Positions 1 through 10,387 of a DNA stretch of 22,841 bases are shown here, piece by piece. Made by a program: the position numbers and the translations under genes. Every line of letters begins with the position of its first letter. Position 1 is the stretch's first letter. The DNA lies in contig JBAXJR010000036.1 of NCBI GenBank assembly GCA_037137755.1, forward strand, positions 1-22,841, given 5' to 3'. The stretch is from Methanomicrobiales archaeon. Lineage in GTDB: Archaea > Halobacteriota > Methanomicrobia > Methanomicrobiales > Methanospirillaceae. Under the pieces are notes generated by a model. That model searched no databases, was not told where the DNA came from, and worked only from the letters and a program-made list of their open reading frames with translations.

Positions 1-1033
1 TGCCGAGGATTGTTCCAATCTTTGGATCTGTTGCTTTCATTGCATATCCCGGCTTGTCAGAGGTGGTTAGTAAATCTCTGGGATGGATCGGTCCATTTGA
101 AGCATCAACCTTACAAGGTACCCGGCCTGCAACGGCAATAATCTGCTCTCCGGGATTTCCATTATTCTTTGTGCCAAGAGTTACCCCGGGGGATGTCGAT
201 ACAATGCCAGCGACCCCAGTATCATACGCCGTCGTCGAAGGCTGGAGTTTCCCATCATCTCCTATGACCATAACAGTACCCGCAGTGACATTCTCAGTTA
301 CCGGCATATATTCGGCGACATCCGAGTTCGGAATCTTTGTACCTTTTGCATAGATATAGTTGGGAGTGTAGATACCGTACCCATTTGGAACATTGGTACT
401 GGCATATAATCCATATGATTGGTTACTGTTTGCGTAGACCCCCCACGCTCCGGGGCCGTAGGTATATCCAACAAGTCCAAAAGCGTTGGCGCCACTGGTG
501 ACTGCAATGACGCCATCGCTGTTATCACCGCTGGTAGCTCCATAGAGTCCGTAAGAGTTGGGGCCGTTGGTAACTGCAATGACCCCATGGCTGGTGGCGC
601 CGGTGGTTTTTGTGTAGACTCCATCGCTGTTGGAGCCGGTGGTTACTGCATAGACGCAATTGCTGGCGGAGCCGGTGGTGTATGCATCGACACCGGGGCT
701 GTATTGGCCGGAGGTGGAGATATAGACTCCATGGCTGTATTGGCCGGTGGCTACTGAAGTGATTCCATAGCTGTCATAACCGGTGGTGGATGCCGTAATT
801 GCAGTTCTGAAGTCACTCGTTGTACTTGCCGATAATTGAGTATCGGTTCCGTATATCCCTGTTGGAGCTGATGAAATATCAGGATGCGATGCTGCAGATC
901 CATTAACGGAGATACTGTTGTTCAACACCGACTGCGTGGTATTATTCTGATTTCCTGTCGATGCGGTACCGATACCTACGATGGCACTGACCAGTGCCAG
1001 CATAACTAAGATAGATACAATCTGTTTTTTCAT
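1..1033 (-). CDS. Secreted 12-aa-repeat (predicted beta-solenoid) protein with C-terminal Peptidase_G2/intramolecular-chaperone-like domain, paralog A; 3' end lies outside the window
   Basis: Not in the ORF track because it has no stop in the window. Manual translation from ATG 1033 (SD GGTGA upstream) gives MKKQIVSILVMLALVSAIVGIGTAST...NSDVAEYMPVTENV...GRVPCKVDASNGP...ATDPKIGTILG, open for 344 codons to the window edge and colinear with 1243..2625. Confidence 0.9.
   Translation of the reverse strand, partial: MKKQIVSILVMLALVSAIVGIGTASTGNQNNTTQSVLNNSISVNGSAASHPDISSAPTGIYGTDTQLSASTTSDFRTAITASTTGYDSYGITSVATGQYSHGVYISTSGQYSPGVDAYTTGSASNCVYAVTTGSNSDGVYTKTTGATSHGVIAVTNGPNSYGLYGATSGDNSDGVIAVTSGANAFGLVGYTYGPGAWGVYANSNQSYGLYASTNVPNGYGIYTPNYIYAKGTKIPNSDVAEYMPVTENVTAGTVMVIGDDGKLQPSTTAYDTGVAGIVSTSPGVTLGTKNNGNPGEQIIAVAGRVPCKVDASNGPIHPRDLLTTSDKPGYAMKATDPKIGTILG
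446..805 (-). repeat. 10 x 36-bp (12-aa) degenerate tandem repeat in paralog A
   Basis: Units such as HGVYISTSGQYS, DGVYTKTTGATS, HGVIAVTNGPNS; consensus xG[VLI]xAxTxGxxS. Confidence 0.9.
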
Positions 1034-1055
1034 GTTAGGTTCACCTACAAGCTCA

Positions 1056-1160
1056 GGGGAAACCGTATATCAAATCGTTTGCACTATGGAAACACCATCA
1101 CTGCTACGGAACCCCAGCCTGAATAAGAGAGGGGTCAGTCATAAAAGTATATATAAATAA
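1056..1160 (-). promoter_or_regulatory. TATA-box promoter and conserved leader of paralog A
   Basis: TTTATATA on the minus strand at 1157-1150; GGAA(A)C motifs (+ strand) at 1058, 1088 and 1108; the region is conserved upstream of paralog B. Confidence 0.6.
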
Positions 1161-1210
1161 TACCATTTGAGCGGAGAATAAAAACATTTATTCCTGCCCT
1201 GATTGGATTC

Positions 1211-1217
1211 AAAAAAA
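1211..1217 (-). terminator. Oligo-T terminator of paralog B
   Basis: T7 tract on the minus strand about 25 nt after the stop codon, typical of archaeal intrinsic termination. Confidence 0.4.
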
Positions 1218-1242
1218 TAGTTCTGTTGATCTTTTTCCATCT

Positions 1243-2625
1243 TTATTGCAGTGTGACAATGACTTCGATCGTCCCGGTACCACTTTCCAGCGTTCCCATC
1301 GCCTTGCCAAGGATGGTTCCAATCTTTGGATCTGTTGCCTTCATCGCATACCCGGGGTTATTGGAAGTGGTCAAAAGATCACCCTCTTCAATCGGCCCAT
1401 TGGATGCATCCACCTTGCATGGCACCCTGCCGGCAACCGCAATAATCGCTTCTCCCGGATTCCCGCCCTCTTTAGCACCGAGCGAGACTCCCGGTTCCGT
1501 AGAAACAATCCCTGCTACATGGGTATCGTTTGCGATCGAGGATGGATGGAGCACCCCGCCTTTACCGATAACCATAACAGTACCGGGTGTGACGTTCTCA
1601 GTTACCGGCATATATTCGGCGACATCCGAGTTCGGAATCTTTGTACCTTTTGCATAGATATAGTTGGGAGTGTAGATACCGTACCCATTTGGAACATTGG
1701 TACTGGCATATAATCCATATGATTGGTTGCTGTTTGCGTAGACCCCCCATGCTCCGGGGCCGTAGGTATATCCAACAAGTCCAAAGGCGTTGGCGCCGCT
1801 GGTGACTGCAATGACGCCATCACTGTTATCGCCGCTGGTAGCTCCGTAGAGTCCATAGGAGGAGGGGCCATTGGTGACTGCAATGACGCCATGGCTGGTG
1901 GAGCCGCCGGTTTTTGCATAGACTCCGTCACTGCTGGAGCCGGTGGTTTGTGAATAGACTCCATGGCTAGTGGAGCCGGCGGTGAATGCATCGAATCCAT
2001 CGCTGTTAGGGCCGGTGGTACCTGCTTCGACCCCACTACTGCCGGTGCCGGCGGTGGATATATAAACTCCATCGCTGCCGATGCCGGTGGTTTTTGCGTA
2101 GACACCATTGCTGTTGGAGCCGAAAGTATATGCATTGACTCCATTACTGAGGGAGCCGGAGGTTTGTGAATAGACTCCAACGCTGCCTTGACCGGTGGTT
2201 TTTGCATAGACTCCATCGCTGCCAGTACCGATGGTTTGTGAATAGACGCCATGGCTGGAATCACCGTAGGTGAGTGCATCGACTCCATCGCTGTATTGGC
2301 CTCCAGTGTATACATCGACCCCATCGCTTCCGGTACCGTGGGTTTCTGCATTAAGACCATAGCTATATTGACCGGAGGTTAATGCTGAAATTGCAGTTTT
2401 ATAGTCACTCGTTGTACTTGCCGATAATGGATTATCGGTTCCGTATATCCCAGTTGGAGCTGAAGAAATACCAGTATGAGATGCTGTAGATCCATTAACG
2501 GTGATACTGTTGTTCAGACCTGACTGCGTGGTATTATTCTGATTTCCCGTCGATGCGGTACCAATGCCGACAATAGCACTGACCAGTGCCAGCATAACTA
2601 AGATAGATACAATCTGTTTTTTCAT
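1243..2625 (-). CDS. Secreted 12-aa-repeat (predicted beta-solenoid) protein with C-terminal Peptidase_G2/intramolecular-chaperone-like domain, paralog B (460 aa)
   Basis: ORF track gives 1243..2637, but the GTG at 2637 is part of the SD (GGTGA) and paralog A starts at the equivalent MKKQ. Sec signal peptide, several N-x-S/T sequons, repeats, then SDVAEY...VAGIVS.PG...GRVPCKVDA..GPI..GDLL...PGYAMKA...GKA. Confidence 0.9.
   Translation of the reverse strand: MKKQIVSILVMLALVSAIVGIGTASTGNQNNTTQSGLNNSITVNGSTASHTGISSAPTGIYGTDNPLSASTTSDYKTAISALTSGQYSYGLNAETHGTGSDGVDVYTGGQYSDGVDALTYGDSSHGVYSQTIGTGSDGVYAKTTGQGSVGVYSQTSGSLSNGVNAYTFGSNSNGVYAKTTGIGSDGVYISTAGTGSSGVEAGTTGPNSDGFDAFTAGSTSHGVYSQTTGSSSDGVYAKTGGSTSHGVIAVTNGPSSYGLYGATSGDNSDGVIAVTSGANAFGLVGYTYGPGAWGVYANSNQSYGLYASTNVPNGYGIYTPNYIYAKGTKIPNSDVAEYMPVTENVTPGTVMVIGKGGVLHPSSIANDTHVAGIVSTEPGVSLGAKEGGNPGEAIIAVAGRVPCKVDASNGPIEEGDLLTTSNNPGYAMKATDPKIGTILGKAMGTLESGTGTIEVIVTLQ
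1750..2397 (-). repeat. 18 x 36-bp (12-aa) degenerate tandem repeat in paralog B
   Basis: Units such as DGVYAKTTGQGS, HGVYSQTTGSSS, NGVYAKTTGIGS. The paralog offset changes from 1592 at the 5' end to 1304 at the 3' end, a difference of 288 bp = 8 units. Confidence 0.9.
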
Positions 2626-2659
2626 GGTAGTTTTCACCCAACAATTAAAACAAGCTTTA

Positions 2660-2762
2660 GGGGAAACCGTTTATAAAATCATTCGCCTTACGGAAACCGT
2701 ATCAATGCTACGGAACCCCGGCCTGATAAGAGACGGTCAGTAATAAAGGTATTTATATAATG
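2660..2762 (-). promoter_or_regulatory. TATA-box promoter and conserved leader of paralog B
   Basis: TTATATAAAT on the minus strand at 2760-2751; GGAA(A)CC motifs at 2662, 2692 and 2712. Confidence 0.6.
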
Positions 2763-3121
2763 CCATTTGATTGGAGAATAAATAAGAGGAAATTAGTAGG
2801 GAGGAGAGCATGCCACCCCCTAACAAAATACAGACTCTCTAGAACCCGGTTACTCATTTAATTCGTACACAAAACCCTAAATCTTCAAGTAGGTTTAAAT
2901 CATCGTTCAAAGGCACGACGAATCTGTGCTCCATTTTGCAGCCCCAAAGAGTGCCCCGCGAATCATTGATCCTTTTCTTTTTCCGACAATTTATGGCAGA
3001 TTCAAGCCCCGTATCGCAAAAATGCCGGAGTTTATCGATAAGGCCTGTATGTCCTTACTTGAGAAATGTGACGAAAACCAATTGCCAACCATTTCGCGGG
3101 GTGCAATGTGACCTATGATAA

Positions 3122-3251
3122 GAGGATGAGCTGAATGATATGATCCGTTGGTTGGTTGATGCCGTGAGTATCAGCCGGTGATTCATATCTTAAGAGTATC
3201 AGCTTTACGATATGTGAATCCCAATCAACCGGACCATATCAATTTCAGTAC
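3122..3251 (-). ncRNA. Candidate structured sRNA, copy 1
   Basis: Closing stem 3248-3221 pairs with 3155-3131; two internal hairpins carry GCUGAUACUC; BRE/TATA (GAAAA-TTATATAT) lies about 30 nt upstream of the stem start. Confidence 0.5.
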
Positions 3252-3272
3252 AGATTTGTTTCTTACCAGATA

Positions 3273-3286
3273 ATATATAATTTTCT
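3273..3286 (-). promoter_or_regulatory. BRE + TATA box for sRNA copy 1
   Basis: Minus strand AGAAAA TTATATAT; predicted +1 near 3251-3249. Confidence 0.55.
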
Positions 3287-3776
3287 ATGTAATTGCCGAC
3301 TTTTCCGGGAACCAGTAAATTCTCTAGCTGAAAAGTGGTTTAAGGATTAAATATCTAATCTTCGCACTATGGAGTCTATAATGACTCGCTGATACGTCGA
3401 AACTTTACTTTTGACCGCGCCTAGCCCTGAAGATAACAGATTACAAGCTCCCGGCCATCTAATTCTGTAAAATACGATGTAATCAAGTTTTCCCACATTT
3501 ATACACTTTATTAGGAATTTCGGTTTCAAGGTTAGAACCAGAATTTGTTCTGATATTTTGAAAGAATTAGATCAAAATTAGGCTTTCTTCCTGACAGTTT
3601 ACTCGCCACAATTTTGAAACAAATTATGTTCAATAGTAGCATTATGGTGGTGTACAATATTGTACATTTAAAAAAAATGCCATTAATGCAGAGAATGACA
3701 AAAATAGTTAGTATAGATTGAGATTTGCTTAACTATATGCCACAATATTTATGTTTACTACTTTATATGCTAATTA

Positions 3777-3790
3777 TTTATATTATATAT
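3777..3790 (+). promoter_or_regulatory. TATA box for sRNA copy 2
   Basis: TTTATATTATATAT; the first TTTATA predicts +1 near G3808. The region is AT-rich, so a chance match is possible. Confidence 0.45.
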
Positions 3791-3807
3791 ACATTTCTTT
3801 AGTATTC

Positions 3808-3950
3808 GAACTATGTTTATTGATTTTTTTAAAAACAATGTGGTGCCACAATATCATCATATCATAAAGCTGATACTCTTAAGATATGAATCACCGGCTG
3901 ATACTCACGGCATCAACCAGTCAAAAGACCATATCGTTCAGCTCATTCTC
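3808..3950 (+). ncRNA. Candidate structured sRNA, copy 2
   Basis: GAAC-TATG-TTT-A-TTGATT (3808-3825) can pair with AGTCAA-A-AGA-C-CATA-TC-GTTC (3919-3939); same two GCUGAUACUC hairpins (3869-3878, 3897-3906). Confidence 0.45.
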
Positions 3951-4063
3951 GCGACTTTCTCCAGATTTCGAAAGCCATTTAGATCTTTTCGGGTATTCCC
4001 GGTGGGCTACCTCGATCTGACGGCTCCTCAGCGGATAGTTAATATTAAGTTGGAATTCGAAAC

Positions 4064-5731
4064 CTATTTGACAAACAATGGTACTTTTTCAAATTTTTCT
4101 ACAGAAAAGAGTCCCCTGACCGTCAGCCGGAGCTGTGGGATTACAGGCAGGCAAAGGAACGAGAGGTACATAAACGGGTCATCTATTCCACCCATCCTGC
4201 GGGTTGCAGAATGGAGCATTCCAAGTTGTTCAACCACCTCTTCATATGGCTTACCTGACATAAGGCCCGCATTTTCAAGTGGCAGCACGGTAACATCATT
4301 ACCATTCACGGCCGCAAGCCCGCCTTTATTACGGATAACTGCAGCTATGGCTTTTCGAAGTTCTTCATCGCTGGTTCCTGCAGCAATAATATTATGTGCA
4401 TCATGCGATACGCTCCCGGCGATGGCCCCCTGCTCAAATGAAAACCCATGTACAAGACCAGTCATATGCACCCCGGGACAATATCGGCTGCAAACCGTGG
4501 TTTTAATGATATCCTGCTCAAGATCAGGCAGTGCTCCACAATGTACGTCACAATGCAGTTCCCGGGTAATAATCTGTCCAGGGACGATCCCGATCACTCT
4601 TGCAAGCCCGGTGCCTGAAAGTGAGAAGTCCGCAACGTCTGGAATAGTTGCCTGCATACCTGGAGGTGCGGGGGGAGTTAAGGGAACGAACTTTGTCAGA
4701 CACTCTTTCCCACGCCGGTATGCCTTTTTCACAACAAATTCTGTTTTGGTGTCTACAATGGAGAAATCGGCCAGCCTACCGGGAGATATGGCACCACGGT
4801 CATGTAATCCAAACATCCCGGCAGCGGACAGGGTAGCCATCCGCAGAGCGAGTTCAAGTTCCAGCCCTTCTGATACAGCAGTCCGGATAACTCCATCGAT
4901 ATGTCCCTGTTTCATAAGAGTATCCGCGTGGCGGTCATCTGTGGAAAAAGAGCACCGTGAAACCGAACAGGGTGTTACAACCGGAAGCAGGGCTGCGATA
5001 TTCTTCTCGGTAGAGCCCTCCCGAAGATAAATGTACATCCCTTTGGACAATTTCTCCCGGGCTTCATCAATCCCAGTACATTCATGATCACTTCCGGGCC
5101 CTGCGAGAATGTATGCATTTAAATCATTGCCGGCAAGCATGGGTGCATGCCCGTCAACAAGGGAGAATATTCCGAGTTTTTCAATGATGCCGGCATCACC
5201 TGACAGAACACCCGGCACATTCATCATTTCACCTAATCCAAGCACACATTCCCTGTCTGAAAACTCAGCAAGATCCGGTGCCTCAAGTGTGGCGCCCCCG
5301 GTGTCAACAGGGGTAGACGGGACACAGGATGGTATCATGTAAAAAAAATCAATCGCTGTGTTTTTCGATGCCTGAACCATATACTCGATCCCTTCTTTTC
5401 CAAGCACATTGCCAATCTCGTGGGGATCCGCGATTACCGTCGATGTCCCATGACGGGCTACCAGGCGGGCGTATTCTGCCGGACAAAGCAGGGAGCTCTC
5501 GATATGTACATGGGAATCGATTAACCCCGGGACAACCTGTGCCCCTTTGCAGTCGATTTCGTGAATGCCGGAATAATTACCTGCTCCAAGCACAATCCCA
5601 TCCTTTATTGCAAAATTTACAAGGTCCCAACCGCAGGTAAACGGGTCGAAGAGTTCTGCATTCCTGACGACCAGGTCCGCAGGGCACAACCCTCTTGCGG
5701 CCCTGATTAAAGATTGCAGGTCAGATTTCAA
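4064..5731 (-). CDS. ade: Adenine deaminase
   Basis: 555 aa amidohydrolase with motifs PGLIDSHVHIESS, ADPHEIGNV, LGEMMN, DGHAP, DHE, REGS, TDD and SHDAHN. The TTG start overlaps the upstream stop. Confidence 0.95.
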   Translation of the reverse strand: MKSDLQSLIRAARGLCPADLVVRNAELFDPFTCGWDLVNFAIKDGIVLGAGNYSGIHEIDCKGAQVVPGLIDSHVHIESSLLCPAEYARLVARHGTSTVIADPHEIGNVLGKEGIEYMVQASKNTAIDFFYMIPSCVPSTPVDTGGATLEAPDLAEFSDRECVLGLGEMMNVPGVLSGDAGIIEKLGIFSLVDGHAPMLAGNDLNAYILAGPGSDHECTGIDEAREKLSKGMYIYLREGSTEKNIAALLPVVTPCSVSRCSFSTDDRHADTLMKQGHIDGVIRTAVSEGLELELALRMATLSAAGMFGLHDRGAISPGRLADFSIVDTKTEFVVKKAYRRGKECLTKFVPLTPPAPPGMQATIPDVADFSLSGTGLARVIGIVPGQIITRELHCDVHCGALPDLEQDIIKTTVCSRYCPGVHMTGLVHGFSFEQGAIAGSVSHDAHNIIAAGTSDEELRKAIAAVIRNKGGLAAVNGNDVTVLPLENAGLMSGKPYEEVVEQLGMLHSATRRMGGIDDPFMYLSFLCLPVIPQLRLTVRGLFSVEKFEKVPLFVK

Positions 5732-6071
5732 AATCCCTGATCACCACCGGATACCGGGTTGACCCTGAACTGACATAGATGAAACACCGGTAATTTCCCT
5801 TTCCGAGTGCAAGCGGTATGGTAACATCATTATCCCCAGCCTTAAGAGGGAAATTTTCAGCATCCCTTGACAGTTCAACCTGTTTATAGTCCTGCAACCG
5901 GAAGACTGCAACCTCAAGCACCCCGTCAGGAATAGGTTCTTCGCTTCTGATCTTGAAGGTCAGGGATCCTGATTTATACGAAACATCCCCGGGTACCAGG
6001 TTCATGCAGCCGCTTCCCAGTACTGAAACGAAAAGGAGAGCAAAAATCAGGAAAATAACCTGAGTGCGCAT
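5721..6071 (-). CDS. Hypothetical lipoprotein (small beta-rich domain)
   Basis: MRTQ, a hydrophobic stretch and the lipobox-like GSGC. The ORF track extends to 6134; the likelier start is 6071 or 6080. Overlaps the ade start. Confidence 0.7.
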   Translation of the reverse strand: MRTQVIFLIFALLFVSVLGSGCMNLVPGDVSYKSGSLTFKIRSEEPIPDGVLEVAVFRLQDYKQVELSRDAENFPLKAGDNDVTIPLALGKGNYRCFIYVSSGSTRYPVVIRDFEI

Positions 6072-6391
6072 ACTATCCATAACGATAGCCGGATTAAAAA
6101 TTATGACGGTATGATCCGGATACAAGGTCATCAAAGCTGAAGGAAGCCTTGGGAGAAACGTGGCTTACTATGAAGGATTTTTACCATAACCGGTAATATT
6201 TTTATTATTTTGGGTGTCGATCTCCAGGTTAGCTGATAAATAATCTAAAAAACATTCCTCAAATTTTAAGGTCGCATTCATTTCATTGTTAAATTAAAAA
6301 AACAGAAAATAGGACTGGGTAATTCAATTCACCTTCCCAAGTAGGTTTTTTTTACAAAAGATTAATGAGGTAGTATAAATATTTATTTATT

Positions 6392-7021
6392 ATGAAATTA
6401 TCGCCAAATCTGATAATAACTATTGTTATTGTCGTCGCAGTCTGCCTGGTCGCGCTCGTTTTCGCATACTCAGTATATTCCCGTGCATTACCCTTATCCC
6501 AGATAACCGTATCACCAACCCCTGTACCTACACCGGAAATTATTCAGCCAACCCCTGAACCTACGTTAATCACACCGGTACCTACATCAGTTTATGCGTA
6601 CCTGGACTACATCCAGTCCGGCACTGATAAAGTGAACCGTGCAAAGAAATCGATTGAAAATGGAAAAGCTTTAATGATTCCGCCGCTTTCCATCAGGTCA
6701 AACTACAATAAAGAGGCCAATGTAGTTTTTAGTGCCAAACAGAATTTCACATTGGCTGAAAACCTCTTTGTGGGTGCGCAGGCAGATTATACCAATGCAT
6801 TGAAAACCGCCCCTGCCTCGCAGGTTGCAACTCTTAATATACTGATTTCATCCTTGAATGCAATTCAAAGGAACTCTGTCACCTATATCCAGTCATCCGA
6901 CTATGCACTTGCAGGCGACTGGTATAACGCAAATAATGCATACAACCAGGCAAATATCGGCTACCAGAGTAATATGGAGAGTGTCAACCAACTATTGGCA
7001 GCGATGAACCTTATCACGTGA
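6392..7021 (+). CDS. Hypothetical membrane-anchored or exported protein with Pro/Thr linker and helical domain
   Basis: 209 aa; N-terminal TM/signal segment, SPTPVPTP...PTPEPT linker, Ala/Asn-rich helical C-terminus; only long ORF in this interval. Confidence 0.8.
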   Translation: MKLSPNLIITIVIVVAVCLVALVFAYSVYSRALPLSQITVSPTPVPTPEIIQPTPEPTLITPVPTSVYAYLDYIQSGTDKVNRAKKSIENGKALMIPPLSIRSNYNKEANVVFSAKQNFTLAENLFVGAQADYTNALKTAPASQVATLNILISSLNAIQRNSVTYIQSSDYALAGDWYNANNAYNQANIGYQSNMESVNQLLAAMNLIT

Positions 7022-7116
7022 ATAATTCTGTGTCTATAATAACACAAGCCCATTTTTTATCAGTTTAAGAAGGAAACCGGGAAATCACCAGTAATCAGAA
7101 TTCACCCGGATATAGA

Positions 7117-7127
7117 TAAAAAAAGGG
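7117..7127 (-). terminator. Oligo-T terminator after pgk
   Basis: CCCTTTTTTTA on the minus strand immediately after the pgk stop, in a convergent intergenic region. Confidence 0.45.
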
Positions 7128-7128
7128 A

Positions 7129-8343
7129 TTAACCATAGATCTGTTTTGACATTTCCAGAGCTTCCACTGCCGGAAGTTTTTTCCCGGTCAGAAACTCGAT
7201 ACATGCCCCACCGCCAGTTGAAATGTGGGTAAAGTGCTTCGCAAGCCCGAGTTTTTCGATTACCGCAGCGGTATGCCCACCCCCTACCACTGAGAAATCG
7301 ACCTGCGACGCAGCCTTCAGGAGTTCATAAGTCCCTGTCGCGAAATCCGGCTCCTCGAATACTCCGGCCGGACCGTTAAAAACAACGGTACCGGCTGCCT
7401 TTAATTGTTTTGACAGTATGCTGATGGCATCCATTCCAAGGTCAAGAACGGGTGCATCACCGGGAATCGCACTGACAGGGAATTCCACACGCCGGTTCCC
7501 TTCCCTGACGGCAACCCAGTCAGGAACTATGATACGCTCCCGGAAACGGTCAAGGAGTTCCCGGGCATGACCAATCTCCTTATCATACTTGAGCTGGTGG
7601 ATCAACTGTGTTGAGGGTGAACCAATATCAAAACCGAGCGCAATAAGAAATACATTTGCAACCACACCGATTACCATTACTTCGTCGGCAATGTCATGTT
7701 CAAGGACATGCCGGGCAACTGCCATCGAATCATCAACCTTTGTTCCTCCCAGCACCATGCAGACTGGTTTTGGTGCCCCCAGGAAGACCCGGCTCAATGT
7801 CAAGACCTCCTTCTCCATCAGGAGACCTGCTGCCGATCTCATGACCAGCGGGAGCCCGACAACGGTTGGCTGCGAGCGATGTGCCGTCCCGAATGCGTCG
7901 TTAATGAATATATCTCCCATACCTGCAAGTTTACGCACAAGATGCGTCTTTTTTGCTTCATCGGGTTTTAATGTCAGGTTCTCTTCTGCATTGAACCTGA
8001 CATTCTCGAGCATGAGCACTTCCCCCGAACGCATGTTCCTGACAGCGTCGCGGGCGGAAGTCCCAAAGATATCGTCAATATAGAAAACCGAGCGCCCGAG
8101 CATCTGGGATAATTTCTCGGCATGGGCTTCGAGAGTCGTGAAATCCTTTTTGCCTGGACGGCTCTGATGTGTCACGATTACGACCCTGCTTCCCTTCAGG
8201 GCCTGTATCGTCGGTATATGTTCACGAAACCGTTTGTCATCGAGAATAAGATTTGAGGTGGGATCGATGGGGGAGTTGAGATCAAGCCTGAGCAGGACCG
8301 TTTTCCCATCAGTTCCCATTTCATTTAGTGTGCCGATCGGCAT
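7129..8343 (-). CDS. pgk: Phosphoglycerate kinase
   Basis: Motifs RLDLNSP, HQSRPG, LENVRF, NDAFGTAHRS, LGGTK, NGPAGVFE, GGGHT and STGGGA. ATG 8343 follows SD GAGGTG (the ORF track starts at the GTG of the SD). Confidence 0.97.
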   Translation of the reverse strand: MPIGTLNEMGTDGKTVLLRLDLNSPIDPTSNLILDDKRFREHIPTIQALKGSRVVIVTHQSRPGKKDFTTLEAHAEKLSQMLGRSVFYIDDIFGTSARDAVRNMRSGEVLMLENVRFNAEENLTLKPDEAKKTHLVRKLAGMGDIFINDAFGTAHRSQPTVVGLPLVMRSAAGLLMEKEVLTLSRVFLGAPKPVCMVLGGTKVDDSMAVARHVLEHDIADEVMVIGVVANVFLIALGFDIGSPSTQLIHQLKYDKEIGHARELLDRFRERIIVPDWVAVREGNRRVEFPVSAIPGDAPVLDLGMDAISILSKQLKAAGTVVFNGPAGVFEEPDFATGTYELLKAASQVDFSVVGGGHTAAVIEKLGLAKHFTHISTGGGACIEFLTGKKLPAVEALEMSKQIYG

Positions 8344-8362
8344 CTGCACCTCATGGTTACAA

Positions 8363-8992
8363 TTATGTTTTCATTCTTGCCTTGATTTTCTTCAGGCGGA
8401 AGAGTTCTTCCCGTTCCATCTCGTCAAGGCGCATTTTGATAAAGTCCCGTGCCTCGGAAAGTTCCGGGATCACCTTGAACTCTAACGCATTAACGCGCCG
8501 CTTCGTGGACTCGATCTCATTGAGGAGTCGTTTCATCGTGGTTTCTATTTCCGCACTTTCGATGATCGCTTCAACGAGCTCCTCAAAGGATGTTGCAGTC
8601 TCGTCGATGATCGAAGTCGTACCGAGGACCCCGTACCCACGGTCAACAAGACTCTTTCTCACCTTCGAAGATTCGATTTTCGGAACAACTACACCCATGA
8701 TATTTTTGGATGAGAGGGTGATCTGGGGAACCTCCTTAACGGAAAATGCCGCTGATTTTACCCCTATAGCCCCTTCTACTGTGTTCGCAAGCGCCATGCT
8801 ATCGACCGCCCTCTGGTATTTCTGCAGCAGCTCTCCACGGCTGTCTTTTGCATCCGCGAGAACCTTGAAAAATTCAAGGATCAGTCCGTCACGCTTCATC
8901 TTGAGAATTTTATAGCCACGCTCGGAGAGCGCAATCCGCCTTTTAAGGTTGATCAGTTCTGAACGTGTCGGCTTAATATCTCTGAGCGCCAT
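8363..8992 (-). CDS. atpD: A/V-type ATP synthase subunit D
   Basis: KPTRSELI, LKMKRDGL and TKRRVNALE motifs; operon position. Confidence 0.97.
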   Translation of the reverse strand: MALRDIKPTRSELINLKRRIALSERGYKILKMKRDGLILEFFKVLADAKDSRGELLQKYQRAVDSMALANTVEGAIGVKSAAFSVKEVPQITLSSKNIMGVVVPKIESSKVRKSLVDRGYGVLGTTSIIDETATSFEELVEAIIESAEIETTMKRLLNEIESTKRRVNALEFKVIPELSEARDFIKMRLDEMEREELFRLKKIKARMKT

Positions 8993-8998
8993 GTGACG

Positions 8999-10387
8999 TT
9001 ACTCCTTTGCAGCCCCGGCTTTAAATTTGGGATGATACTTGCTGATAAGGTCCCGATCGATACGGGTGAGCTGCTCCACGGGTAACGTAGAGAGCAGGTC
9101 CCAGCCGAGATCAAGGGTGTCCACGATCGTCCTGTCCTCGTCATATCCCTGTTTTACAAACCGCTGTTCAAAGAGGTCTGCAAATTCAAGAAGCATCCGG
9201 TCACGTTCTGAAAGGGCATCCTTACCCACAATGGCGACCAGGCCGCGGAGGTCGTTTCCTTCTGCATACCCGGCATACATCTGGTCAGAGACCTTTTTGT
9301 GGTCTTCCCTTGTATGACCTTTTCCGATACCAAGGTTCATCAGGCGGGACAATGAGGGTAGCACGTTGATTGGCGGGTAGATACCCTTCCGGTGGAGCTC
9401 ACGGGAGACCACGATCTGTCCTTCGGTAATGTACCCGGTAAGGTCAGGGATCGGGTGCGTGATATCGTCACCTGGCATCGTAAGGATCGGGATCTGTGTC
9501 ACAGAACCTTTCAGGCCCTTGATGATCCCTGCACGTTCGTAGATGCTTGCAAGGTCAGTGTACATGTAACCGGGGTAACCACGGCGACCAGGCACTTCTT
9601 CTCGGGCAGCGCCGATCTGACGGAGTGCTTCGCAATAATTGGTCATATCTGTGAGGATTACCAGCACATGCATACCAAGTTCGAATGCGAGGTACTCTGC
9701 CGTTGTAAGGGCAAGACGCGGAGTGATAATCCGTTCGACTGCCGGATCATCGGCGAGGTTTAAGAACACCACGGCACGCTCGAGCGCGCCTGTGCGCTCA
9801 AAGTCCTTCATGAAGTGGTTTGCCTCTTCCTTTGTGATACCCATTGCAGCGAAAACCACGGCGAAAGGTTCTGTCGAACCGATCACTTTTGACTGCCGGG
9901 CGATCTGGAGTGCCACATTATTGTGGGGAAGACCTGCTGCCGAGAAAATCGGAAGCTTCTGACCCCTGACAAGCGTGTTTGTACCGTCGATTGTTGAAAT
10001 ACCAGTCTGGATAAACTCGTTTGGTGATGCACGTGCATAGGGATTAATTGCAGCACCGGTGATGTCCAGGCGTTTTTCCGGTACAATTTCAGGACCACCA
10101 TCAATCGGTTTTCCTCCACCGGAGAGGATACGCCCAAGCATCTCCTTTCCGACAGGCATCTTGATGGTTTCTCCCGTGAAACGGACACCGCTGTCCCTTC
10201 CGATACCGGCAGTTGTCTCAAAGACCTGTACCACGACCAGATTATCACTCGTGTCGAGTACCTGCCCACGTTTGACCGTACCGTCAAAGGTCACAATGTT
10301 GACGAGCTCACCGTACCCGATTGGCTCGGTCTTCTCGACAAACACAAGAGGCCCGGCAATTTTTGAAATCGTCCTGTATTCCTTCAT
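8999..10387 (-). CDS. atpB: A/V-type ATP synthase subunit B
   Basis: [30 protein letters not shown] and [15 protein letters not shown]; no intein. Confidence 0.98.

Follow-up and report, generated by a model that had tools for sequence, protein, structure and literature searches.

The window analysed here is a 22,841-nt stretch (positions 1–22,841) of contig JBAXJR010000036.1 in assembly GCA_037137755.1, from a Methanomicrobiales archaeon. The subject is a 93-nt inverted repeat in a 1.4-kb intergenic gap, flanked on one side by a surface-protein gene and on the other by the 3′ end of the gene for adenine deaminase. With a probability that we put at about 0.72, the repeat consists of one intact and one broken gene of a small-RNA family. 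The left arm would be the 3′ part of an intact gene of ~130 nt on the minus strand (3122–3251), and the right arm would lie inside a relic of the resident gene on the plus strand (3852–3955), with the relic accounting for the inverted repeat.

In the history that we favour, the resident gene stood between the genes for a REC-PAS-TPR protein and adenine deaminase, and foreign DNA of at least 5.1 kb would have interrupted it at TATCATCATATCA. The promoter and 5′ arm would have stayed with the REC gene, now on another contig of the assembly (C6), and the 3′ part with the deaminase gene at 3852–3955. The inserted block would have brought with it at least three tandem surface-protein genes and a complete RNA gene, the latter inverted and placed at the deaminase-proximal end. 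This copy, carrying ~100 nt of its native upstream spacer, would preserve the function, and the 93-nt inverted repeat would be the mere overlap of the intact copy and the relic.

The family that emerges is a single-copy, promoter-equipped, and covarying RNA gene that has no match in Rfam and is found in about a third of the sampled genomes of its archaeal family. A covariance model for it is at hand, as are a sharply delimited motif of candidate functional role and a candidate protein partner. A block of surface genes that lands inside the RNA gene and leaves an intact copy in place argues that the RNA is needed, and the locus can be regarded as a natural experiment on the disruption of an RNA gene.

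The two arms of the repeat

The arms, at 3122–3214 and 3858–3950, are 93 nt long and 643 nt apart. They are identical at 85 of 93 positions, with a longest perfect run of 55 nt at 3153–3207, both figures being those given in an initial annotation of this DNA, and their similarity (E 4e-31 against the whole 2.64-Mb assembly) is far beyond chance. Compared with its own assembly of 106 contigs, the 871-nt region matches itself, its two arms, and a single 81-nt piece on C6.

The covariance model of the family (R1, described below) scores the left copy at 74 bits over 3128–3248, and orthologs in eight sister genomes are 81%–88% identical to it. Its 130-nt RNA, comprising a closing stem (P1) around two hairpins (H1 and H2), folds at −38.7 kcal/mol (z −3.84), which none of 200 shuffles equals. 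Both hairpins present the same sequence, GCUGAUACUC, in their apical loops: motif 1 at 3194–3203 in H1 and motif 2 at 3166–3175 in H2, each on the minus strand. The two 9-mers have mean unpaired probabilities of 0.60 and 0.75, respectively, against 0.31 for the rest of the RNA (43 sequences). A promoter with a transcription factor B recognition element (BRE) and a TATA box (3270–3290, minus strand) is conserved in the orthologs, and its TATA-like octamer (3281–3274) begins 33 nt before the closing stem does. Homology of the left copy to the ancestral upstream spacer extends to ~3345 by BLAST; the block homologous to the sister genomes, i.e., the left copy and its upstream region, runs from 3115 to ~3345.

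A TATA box and a closing stem had been ascribed to each copy. This assignment stands for the left copy and falls for the right, where the DNA upstream of the arm (3777–3851) is AT-rich (27%–30% GC) and unrelated to the RNA family. What the right arm belongs to is the 3′ two-thirds of the resident small-RNA gene, with H1, H2, the 3′ strand of P1, and the tail, convergent with the deaminase gene and still in the ancestral position beside it; the promoter and the 5′ strand of P1 are absent. The relic aligns to the sister locus from RNA position ~40 through the spacer and into the deaminase gene, and R1 scores it at 51.6 bits. Four differences from the genus consensus are private to this arm (AACC to AGUC and ACGG to AAAG), all of them in the 3′ strand of P1 or the adjoining junction; because the 5′ partner of this strand is gone, they look like decay and not compensation. 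The 148-nt right-hand RNA that had been proposed (3808–3955) folds at −25.7 kcal/mol (z −1.13), with 30 of 200 shuffles at least as good.

The missing 5′ part is found on C6. With a sister locus as reference and its plus strand taken as the RNA sense, the alignment of C6 (as its reverse complement) takes in the REC gene and the promoter and ends within the RNA at reference position 4802; that of the window starts at 4784 and runs over the rest of the RNA, the spacer, and into the deaminase gene. The piece on C6 ends ...GGTATCATCATATCA and passes into unrelated DNA; that in the window emerges from unrelated DNA and continues TATCATCATATCATAAAGC... Read base by base across the junction, both fragments of the split gene end in the 13-bp segment TATCATCATATCA, at 3852–3864 (plus strand) in the window and at C6:1276–1288 for the second copy. 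Since the two pieces cover the sister locus in turn and share these 13 bp, the resident gene appears to have been split. The C6 fragment agrees with the orthologs at 62–64 of 71–72 positions and the left copy at 51–56 of 71–72, and the closer agreement of the former fits its being the resident allele. The description of the arms as two paralogous small RNAs (sRNAs), each with a promoter and a closing stem, is thus not upheld: sister genomes carry one copy each, and the right arm is a truncated 3′ fragment whose 5′ part lies on C6.

The RNA family, its structure, and its strand

In a BLAST comparison with 60 relatives, nine of the 12 genomes from the window's genus contain the element, each at a single locus that both arms of the window match. 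In eight sister genomes, it lies between a divergent REC-PAS-TPR gene and the convergent 3′ end of the adenine deaminase gene. The nine orthologs of the genus are 92% identical per column, and their flanks are unalignable. More distant homologs found by similarity (in G009, G014, and G028) keep two copies of GCUGAUACUC, with stems that have changed in a compensating way; both motifs are kept in all 12 of the similarity-found homologs. A pattern on the two motifs, run over 185,579 species genomes (one genome per species), returned 46 stretches, of which 45 stand under the names Methanolinea, Methanoregula, Methanoregulaceae, Methanomicrobiales, or Methanobacteriota and one under Acidobacteriaceae. 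The same pattern returned 70 metagenome stretches.

Collection of homologs and construction of a covariance model had been suggested as a check in the initial annotation. The resulting model, R1, was built from a MAFFT alignment of 46 sequences and matches all 45 archaeal pattern loci, leaving the bacterial locus and the C6 fragment unmatched. It also matches 67 of the 70 pattern-selected metagenome loci (those missed are L088, L108, and L128). Among 151 sampled genomes of the archaeal family, R1 finds the element in 54, the present genome included, and nearly all of these carry a single copy. Matches are concentrated in certain genera: 11/12 genomes in g1, 17/19 in g11, 13/17 in g18, 3/4 in g13, and 2/2 in g9, against 0/31 in g6, 0/14 in g7, and 0/11 in g14. 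One genome of another genus, G014, holds two full-length copies of the RNA gene ~95 kb apart (L033 and L034), one at the site between a small-protein gene and a DUF2070 gene, the other elsewhere.

The element always lies just past the stop codon of a convergent gene, which is the adenine deaminase or the DUF2070 gene according to subtype. As far as searched, the family is confined to part of the Methanoregulaceae-named family (Methanolinea, Methanoregula, and other genera). Members of the Methanoregulaceae are hydrogenotrophic methanogens common in lake, sediment, wetland, peat, and sludge habitats, and the labels of carrier runs and contigs name lake water, sediment, wetland, peat, and activated sludge.

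The RNA is predicted to form a rod, in which a long closing helix, P1, is built from the two ends and leads into an interior that shows CUGAUACUC twice in single-stranded form. P1 reaches up to ~29 bp in Methanoregula-type sequences. In the genus of the window, it is followed by the two hairpins with GCUGAUACUC in their loops; the Methanolinea/Methanoregula type (B-type) has motif 1 in an internal loop on the 5′ side, and a conserved hairpin bears motif 2 in its apical loop.

Covariation was assessed on 46 genome matches and 62 full-length metagenome matches, which gave 71 sequences once identical ones had been removed and were aligned with MAFFT. The set excludes the relic of the right arm, four matches truncated at contig ends, and both matches on the metagenome contig L142 (which repeats the window). 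P1 comprises 16 pairs, 12 of which are changed on both sides, and 85.4% of its cells are paired. The whole tested structure is 82.2% paired against 21%–42% with partners slid by 1–3 columns, a comparison that favours this structure over the slid controls in that it was derived from the same sequences. The covariation score is 0.260, compared with 0.158 ± 0.006 for shuffles, and none of 500 shuffles reaches it; relatedness alone, however, can beat every shuffle without any structure. An earlier alignment of 43 distinct sequences gives the same picture. Most sequences in the large alignments were collected by a pattern that demands both motifs, so the invariance of the motifs there is a matter of construction.

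The differences between the window's own two copies had been taken for covariation-like changes; they are not above chance, and the RNA proposed for the right copy folds, as given above, no better than many of its shuffles. Real covariation exists between species and not between the two copies. A caution for genome scanning follows, in that an inverted repeat with seemingly compensatory differences between its copies can be a gene and its relic, with the real covariation to be found only between species.

With regard to strand, P1 contains 56 G.U cells against 14 A.C cells (43 sequences), an excess that speaks for the strand read as minus at the left copy. Upstream of 41 of 47 model matches stands an octamer that differs from TTTATATA at no more than two positions; in 37 of these 41, it starts 27–33 nt ahead of model position 1, and a BRE-like stretch rich in purines comes before it. 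In 20 of 34 B-type genes, a run of at least four T residues directly follows P1. The primary transcript, its ends placed by the promoter and the T-tract, would thus be ~110–130 nt long and made from its own BRE/TATA promoter. The strand assignment rests on the cross-species G.U counts, the promoter, and the T-tracts, and not on the fold in this genome. No open reading frame (ORF) is conserved: the frame from model position 1 runs for 1–42 aa across the 71 sequences. A small protein-coding gene was considered and rejected, as there is no conserved frame and two orthologs lack the only ATG of a 10-codon frame.

The putative insertion and rival accounts of the repeat

Between the two gene fragments would lie C6:1–1275 and window positions 1–3851, together at least 5.1 kb of DNA. 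The right end of this DNA is an AT-rich spacer (3346–3851; GC 27%–36%) that is unique in the assembly, with a small palindrome, TGTGGTGCCACA, just inside the junction at ~3825–3851. At the opposite end, C6 carries a small GC-rich palindrome, GCCGTGGTGTCACGGC, at ~1240–1275, and the palindromes at both ends of the insert adjoin runs of T or A. Judged by its sequence, the hairpin at the C6 end, followed by T8 and placed directly downstream of the truncated 5′ fragment, could terminate the transcript of that fragment. About 0.6 kb in from the end of the insert nearest the deaminase gene stands the intact left copy, in inverted orientation, upstream of the surface genes and reading in their direction.

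The cargo of the insertion would include surface-protein paralog 2 (1243–2637, minus strand), a 464-aa protein with a signal-peptide-like N-terminus and Gly/Ser-rich repeats, which is co-directional with the left RNA gene and 485 nt downstream of it. Paralog 1 (2–1033, minus strand) runs off the contig end. These two pieces at the left end of the window contig and C6:6–752 are the only three of this family in the assembly; one piece is cut off by the left end of C6 and another by that of the window contig, and with those ends joined they would be co-directional. The paralogs share a conserved C-terminal domain, and their upstream regions (2650–2782 and 1047–1182) are 82% alike. The surface-protein family was found in none of the 12 other genomes of the genus and matches no Pfam family. 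Its look-alikes in the Atlas are bacterial hypothetical proteins (0.94) and tail-fibre-like families (0.87), which serve as leads only.

The arrangement recurs in public data, although some of the supporting contigs may share the source sample of the window. Run X8 yields a 575-nt contig over 3689–4263 together with a contig bearing a C6-type junction, runs X1 and X2 a 717-nt contig over 3178–3894 and a contig of the 55-nt core at about twice the depth, and run X6 a contig over 3213–3919. The metagenome contig L142, 99.7% identical to the window over 284–9000, is arranged likewise and also breaks off within the repeated surface gene. Among the public runs listed for the stretch, none is of RNA, which is neutral as to expression.

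Several points weigh against this account. No integrase or transposase was found in the assembled 5.1 kb or in those window ORFs that were scanned with Pfam, nine of them in a further scan, and the adjacency of C6 and the window contig is itself deduced. Insertion is the simplest reading of the split gene, yet an inversion with one breakpoint in the RNA gene may have taken place instead. The relic keeps both motif hairpins perfectly within the 55-nt core and may retain some residual function. With respect to the RNA itself, the non-RNA (plus) strand of 3112–3256 folds better (−50.5 kcal/mol, z −5.5) than the RNA strand (−39.4 kcal/mol, z −3.3), and a clear T-tract is present in only 1 of 13 genes of the window's genus type, where the tail is pyrimidine-rich. 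Finally, the exact complement of the 9-mer occurs at 33 sites in the genome, four of them in the element itself, against ~20 expected, which is no clear enrichment. The origin of the intact copy is a separate matter: both copies in this genome share one derived base (CUCACGG instead of CUCCCGG), and the copy may therefore stem from a local inverted duplication or gene conversion and not from outside.

Among the rival explanations, the one that survives best, improbable as we consider it, is that the arms are two functional and divergent paralogous sRNAs, the right one having acquired another 5′ arm and taken its promoter from the AT-rich spacer. The motif hairpins of the right arm are indeed unchanged over 55 nt, R1 still recognises the arm, and a weak stem can be drawn; TATA-like strings also lie upstream, the best octamer starting 45 nt before the model start. 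Such strings are, however, expected by chance at 27% GC, homology ends at 3852, and the DNA upstream has no relatives anywhere searched. The private substitutions of the right arm break P1 pairs, its fold is no better than shuffles, and the family is single-copy in nearly all matched genomes.

Less probable still is an invertible DNA switch, in which recombination between the 93-nt arms flips the 643-nt promoter-bearing segment. The same low standing applies to its proposed effect, namely that the switch would re-attach the promoter and 5′ arm to either 3′ half and so toggle read-through into the surface genes. The geometry is suggestive, with inverted repeats flanking an AT-rich segment whose promoter is aimed at the surface-protein array, and inversion would presumably rebuild a complete gene in the ancestral orientation. 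The repeat is, however, fully accounted for by a conserved gene overlapping its relic; no recombinase domain was found in the window ORFs scanned with Pfam, and the window and L142 have the same orientation. The contigs from public runs contain no strand-changing joints, which is uninformative since contigs assembled at k = 31 cannot span the 55-nt core.

At a similarly low level, and marginally below it, stands the proposal that the element acts as DNA, as a protein-binding pair with GAGTATCAGC present twice, or on the other strand as the 3′ untranslated region (3′-UTR) or terminator of the convergent gene. Two identical 10-mers lie 28–32 bp apart, the element is always just past the stop codon of the convergent gene, and the other strand folds better in this genome. 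The G.U:A.C ratio of 56:14 in P1 nevertheless favours the proposed strand, as do the promoter geometry and the T-tract; the compensatory changes preserve pairing, which DNA sites need not do, and the convergent gene differs between subtypes. Last, a miniature inverted-repeat transposable element (MITE) or insertion sequence (IS) remnant with terminal inverted repeats, to which the 93-nt inverted arms around 643 nt of non-coding, AT-rich DNA might point and which the initial annotation had named among the outcomes that would overturn its own proposal, is ruled out on copy number: the 2.64-Mb assembly has no further copies save the 81-nt fragment accounted for by the split gene, sister genomes hold a single arm only at the syntenic place, and the bases flanking the arms do not match, so that there is no target-site duplication.

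Of the neighbouring genes, that for adenine deaminase (4064–5731, minus strand; Pfam Adenine_deam_C, 7.5e-49) is identified by synteny as the ancestral convergent neighbour of the RNA gene in the genus. Beginning in the relic, a 405-aa open frame on the plus strand (3813–5030) crosses the deaminase gene in antisense; it is the shadow of that gene's own frame and not a host gene of the repeat. An 18-nt inverted match (89%) links 2927–2944, downstream of the left copy, to 4201–4218 in the 3′ coding part of the deaminase gene. With E 0.019 in a tiny search, it is probably due to chance and possibly a trace of a longer, old duplication. A decayed fragment of the deaminase gene to the left of the left copy was also considered and discarded, as tblastn of the deaminase against 2600–3300 found nothing. 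Other genes of the window encode A-type ATPase subunits, phosphoglycerate kinase, and LonB, which mark it as archaeal.

Possible mode of action and comparable systems

The intact copy, taken as a member of the RNA family described above, shows two identical exposed motifs, and we infer that these are the working contacts of a trans-acting regulatory RNA. They may bind two sites of a protein, an idea that falls somewhat short of an even chance and is slightly favoured over pairing with RNA. That the motifs pair with GAGUAUCAG-like sites in other RNAs is conceivable and a little more tentative. The sites of the 9-mer complement lie mostly inside ORFs and form no pattern at start codons, and the 7-mer complement of the motif is present in none of 38 tRNAs.

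A candidate partner is a conserved protein of ~105 aa whose gene adjoins the RNA gene upstream, in divergent orientation, at 27 of 46 genome-derived loci, mostly of the Methanolinea/Methanoregula type. An example is the neighbouring ORF at L063:2575–2919 (minus strand). The protein contains an invariant or nearly invariant G.ARRSG.G stretch and, noise apart, matches no Pfam or NCBIfam family at E ≤ 1. It occurs in 63 of the 151 family genomes, and its distribution over genera parallels that of the RNA, with the exceptions of g14 (protein in 9/11, RNA in 0/11) and g19 (2/2 and 0/2). This parallel could arise from kinship alone.

The AlphaFold (AF2) model of the ~105-aa protein (predicted local distance difference test score 83.5) is rich in beta structure and has two similar halves, for which the internal repeat in sequence is weak (hhalign E 0.043). 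Foldseek returned nothing at E ≤ 0.001 against the PDB. In the VIA wide search, the best Z was 5.7, for the SsgA-like protein 3cm1 (root-mean-square deviation 3.4 over 84 residues), and a Z of 4.6 was obtained for the trypanosome guide-RNA-binding protein MRP1/MRP2; both scores are below the level at which they mean more than a common beta arrangement.

In the genome of the window (G000), the gene for the ~105-aa protein lies on contig C3 (12449–12763; L072:2947–3264, minus strand) beside a DUF2070 gene as in the other type, and its ARRSGRG stretch is changed. The spacer between the small-protein and DUF2070 genes (L072:3265–3463) is only ~200 nt long and has no match to R1, from which it appears that the RNA gene has changed place in the lineage of the genus. 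No remnant of the RNA was found at this ancestral B-type site or at the protein locus of two RNA-less genera, where nothing scored below E 0.25 with filters off.

The RNA and the ~105-aa protein might form a clade-specific module, each half of the protein gripping one CUGAUACUC and the RNA titrating or guiding the protein; we regard this as unlikely. On this view, the RNA gene would have moved away from the protein gene in the genus of the window, and the protein would have lost its ARRSGRG motif.

Among known systems, genomic islands insert into tRNA, tmRNA, or sRNA genes. The present locus would resemble them in the foreign DNA inside a gene, the 13-bp direct duplication that bounds it, and the retention of a functional copy. 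It would differ in that a whole, inverted gene is kept ~0.6 kb within the insert in place of one rebuilt at the junction, and in that the assembled 5.1 kb contains no integrase. Invertons, such as fimS and the capsule promoters of Bacteroides, have inverted repeats that bracket a promoter, as is the case here beside surface-protein genes. Here, however, the repeats are 93 nt long and derived from a conserved gene, no recombinase is found in the window ORFs scanned, and no second orientation is seen in the window, L142, or the contigs of public runs (a weak test, the last being assembled at k = 31).

With respect to known RNA classes, the Rfam scan that had been suggested matched no family at the element. 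Within window positions 2600–4100, Rfam 15 gave at E ≤ 10 only the Dianthovirus 3′-UTR (14.9 bits against a gathering score of 100), and at E ≤ 1 it gave nothing at the element in four homologous loci (32 kb). The earlier opinion that the element is neither a tRNA nor a C/D or H/ACA guide is confirmed, with no tRNA or tmRNA gene reported by ARAGORN in 2400–4300, no C/D match in Rfam, and neither RUGAUGA nor ACA conserved. A C/D box sRNA has box C (RUGAUGA) near its 5′ end and box D (CUGA) near its 3′ end, a kink-turn, and a guide between the boxes; CUGA is present inside both motifs here, but no RUGAUGA is conserved on the RNA strand in the 71 aligned sequences. An H/ACA sRNA combines a hairpin containing a pseudouridylation pocket with an ACA box immediately 3′ of its lower stem; here, P1 is followed by GGUC(N)UUU or GCUCAUUCU, and no ACA is conserved. 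A literature search turned up no RNA of this kind and no RNA-level regulation for the Methanoregulaceae; sRNA lists supplementary to archaeal transcriptome papers could hold it.

Of known kinds, archaeal sRNAs transcribed independently from intergenic regions come closest; trans-acting examples are known from Methanosarcina mazei and Haloferax volcanii. Like these, the new RNA has a stand-alone intergenic gene with its own BRE/TATA promoter, a length of ~100–130 nt, a stable fold, and conservation within a lineage. It differs from them in having no match in Rfam 15, in being limited to part of the Methanoregulaceae, and in presenting, unusually, one 9–10-nt sequence twice.

This last feature invites comparison with bacterial CsrB and RsmZ, which titrate a protein by means of a repeated loop motif, GGA. 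Like them, the new RNA repeats the same short motif in single-stranded loops of a structured molecule, as in multivalent protein-binding RNAs. Unlike them, it has two copies only, and the motif is CUGAUACUC and not GGA, so that any likeness is one of mode and not of membership. Should the doubtful module of RNA and ~105-aa protein prove real, it would be an archaeal counterpart, in its logic, to CsrB/CsrA.

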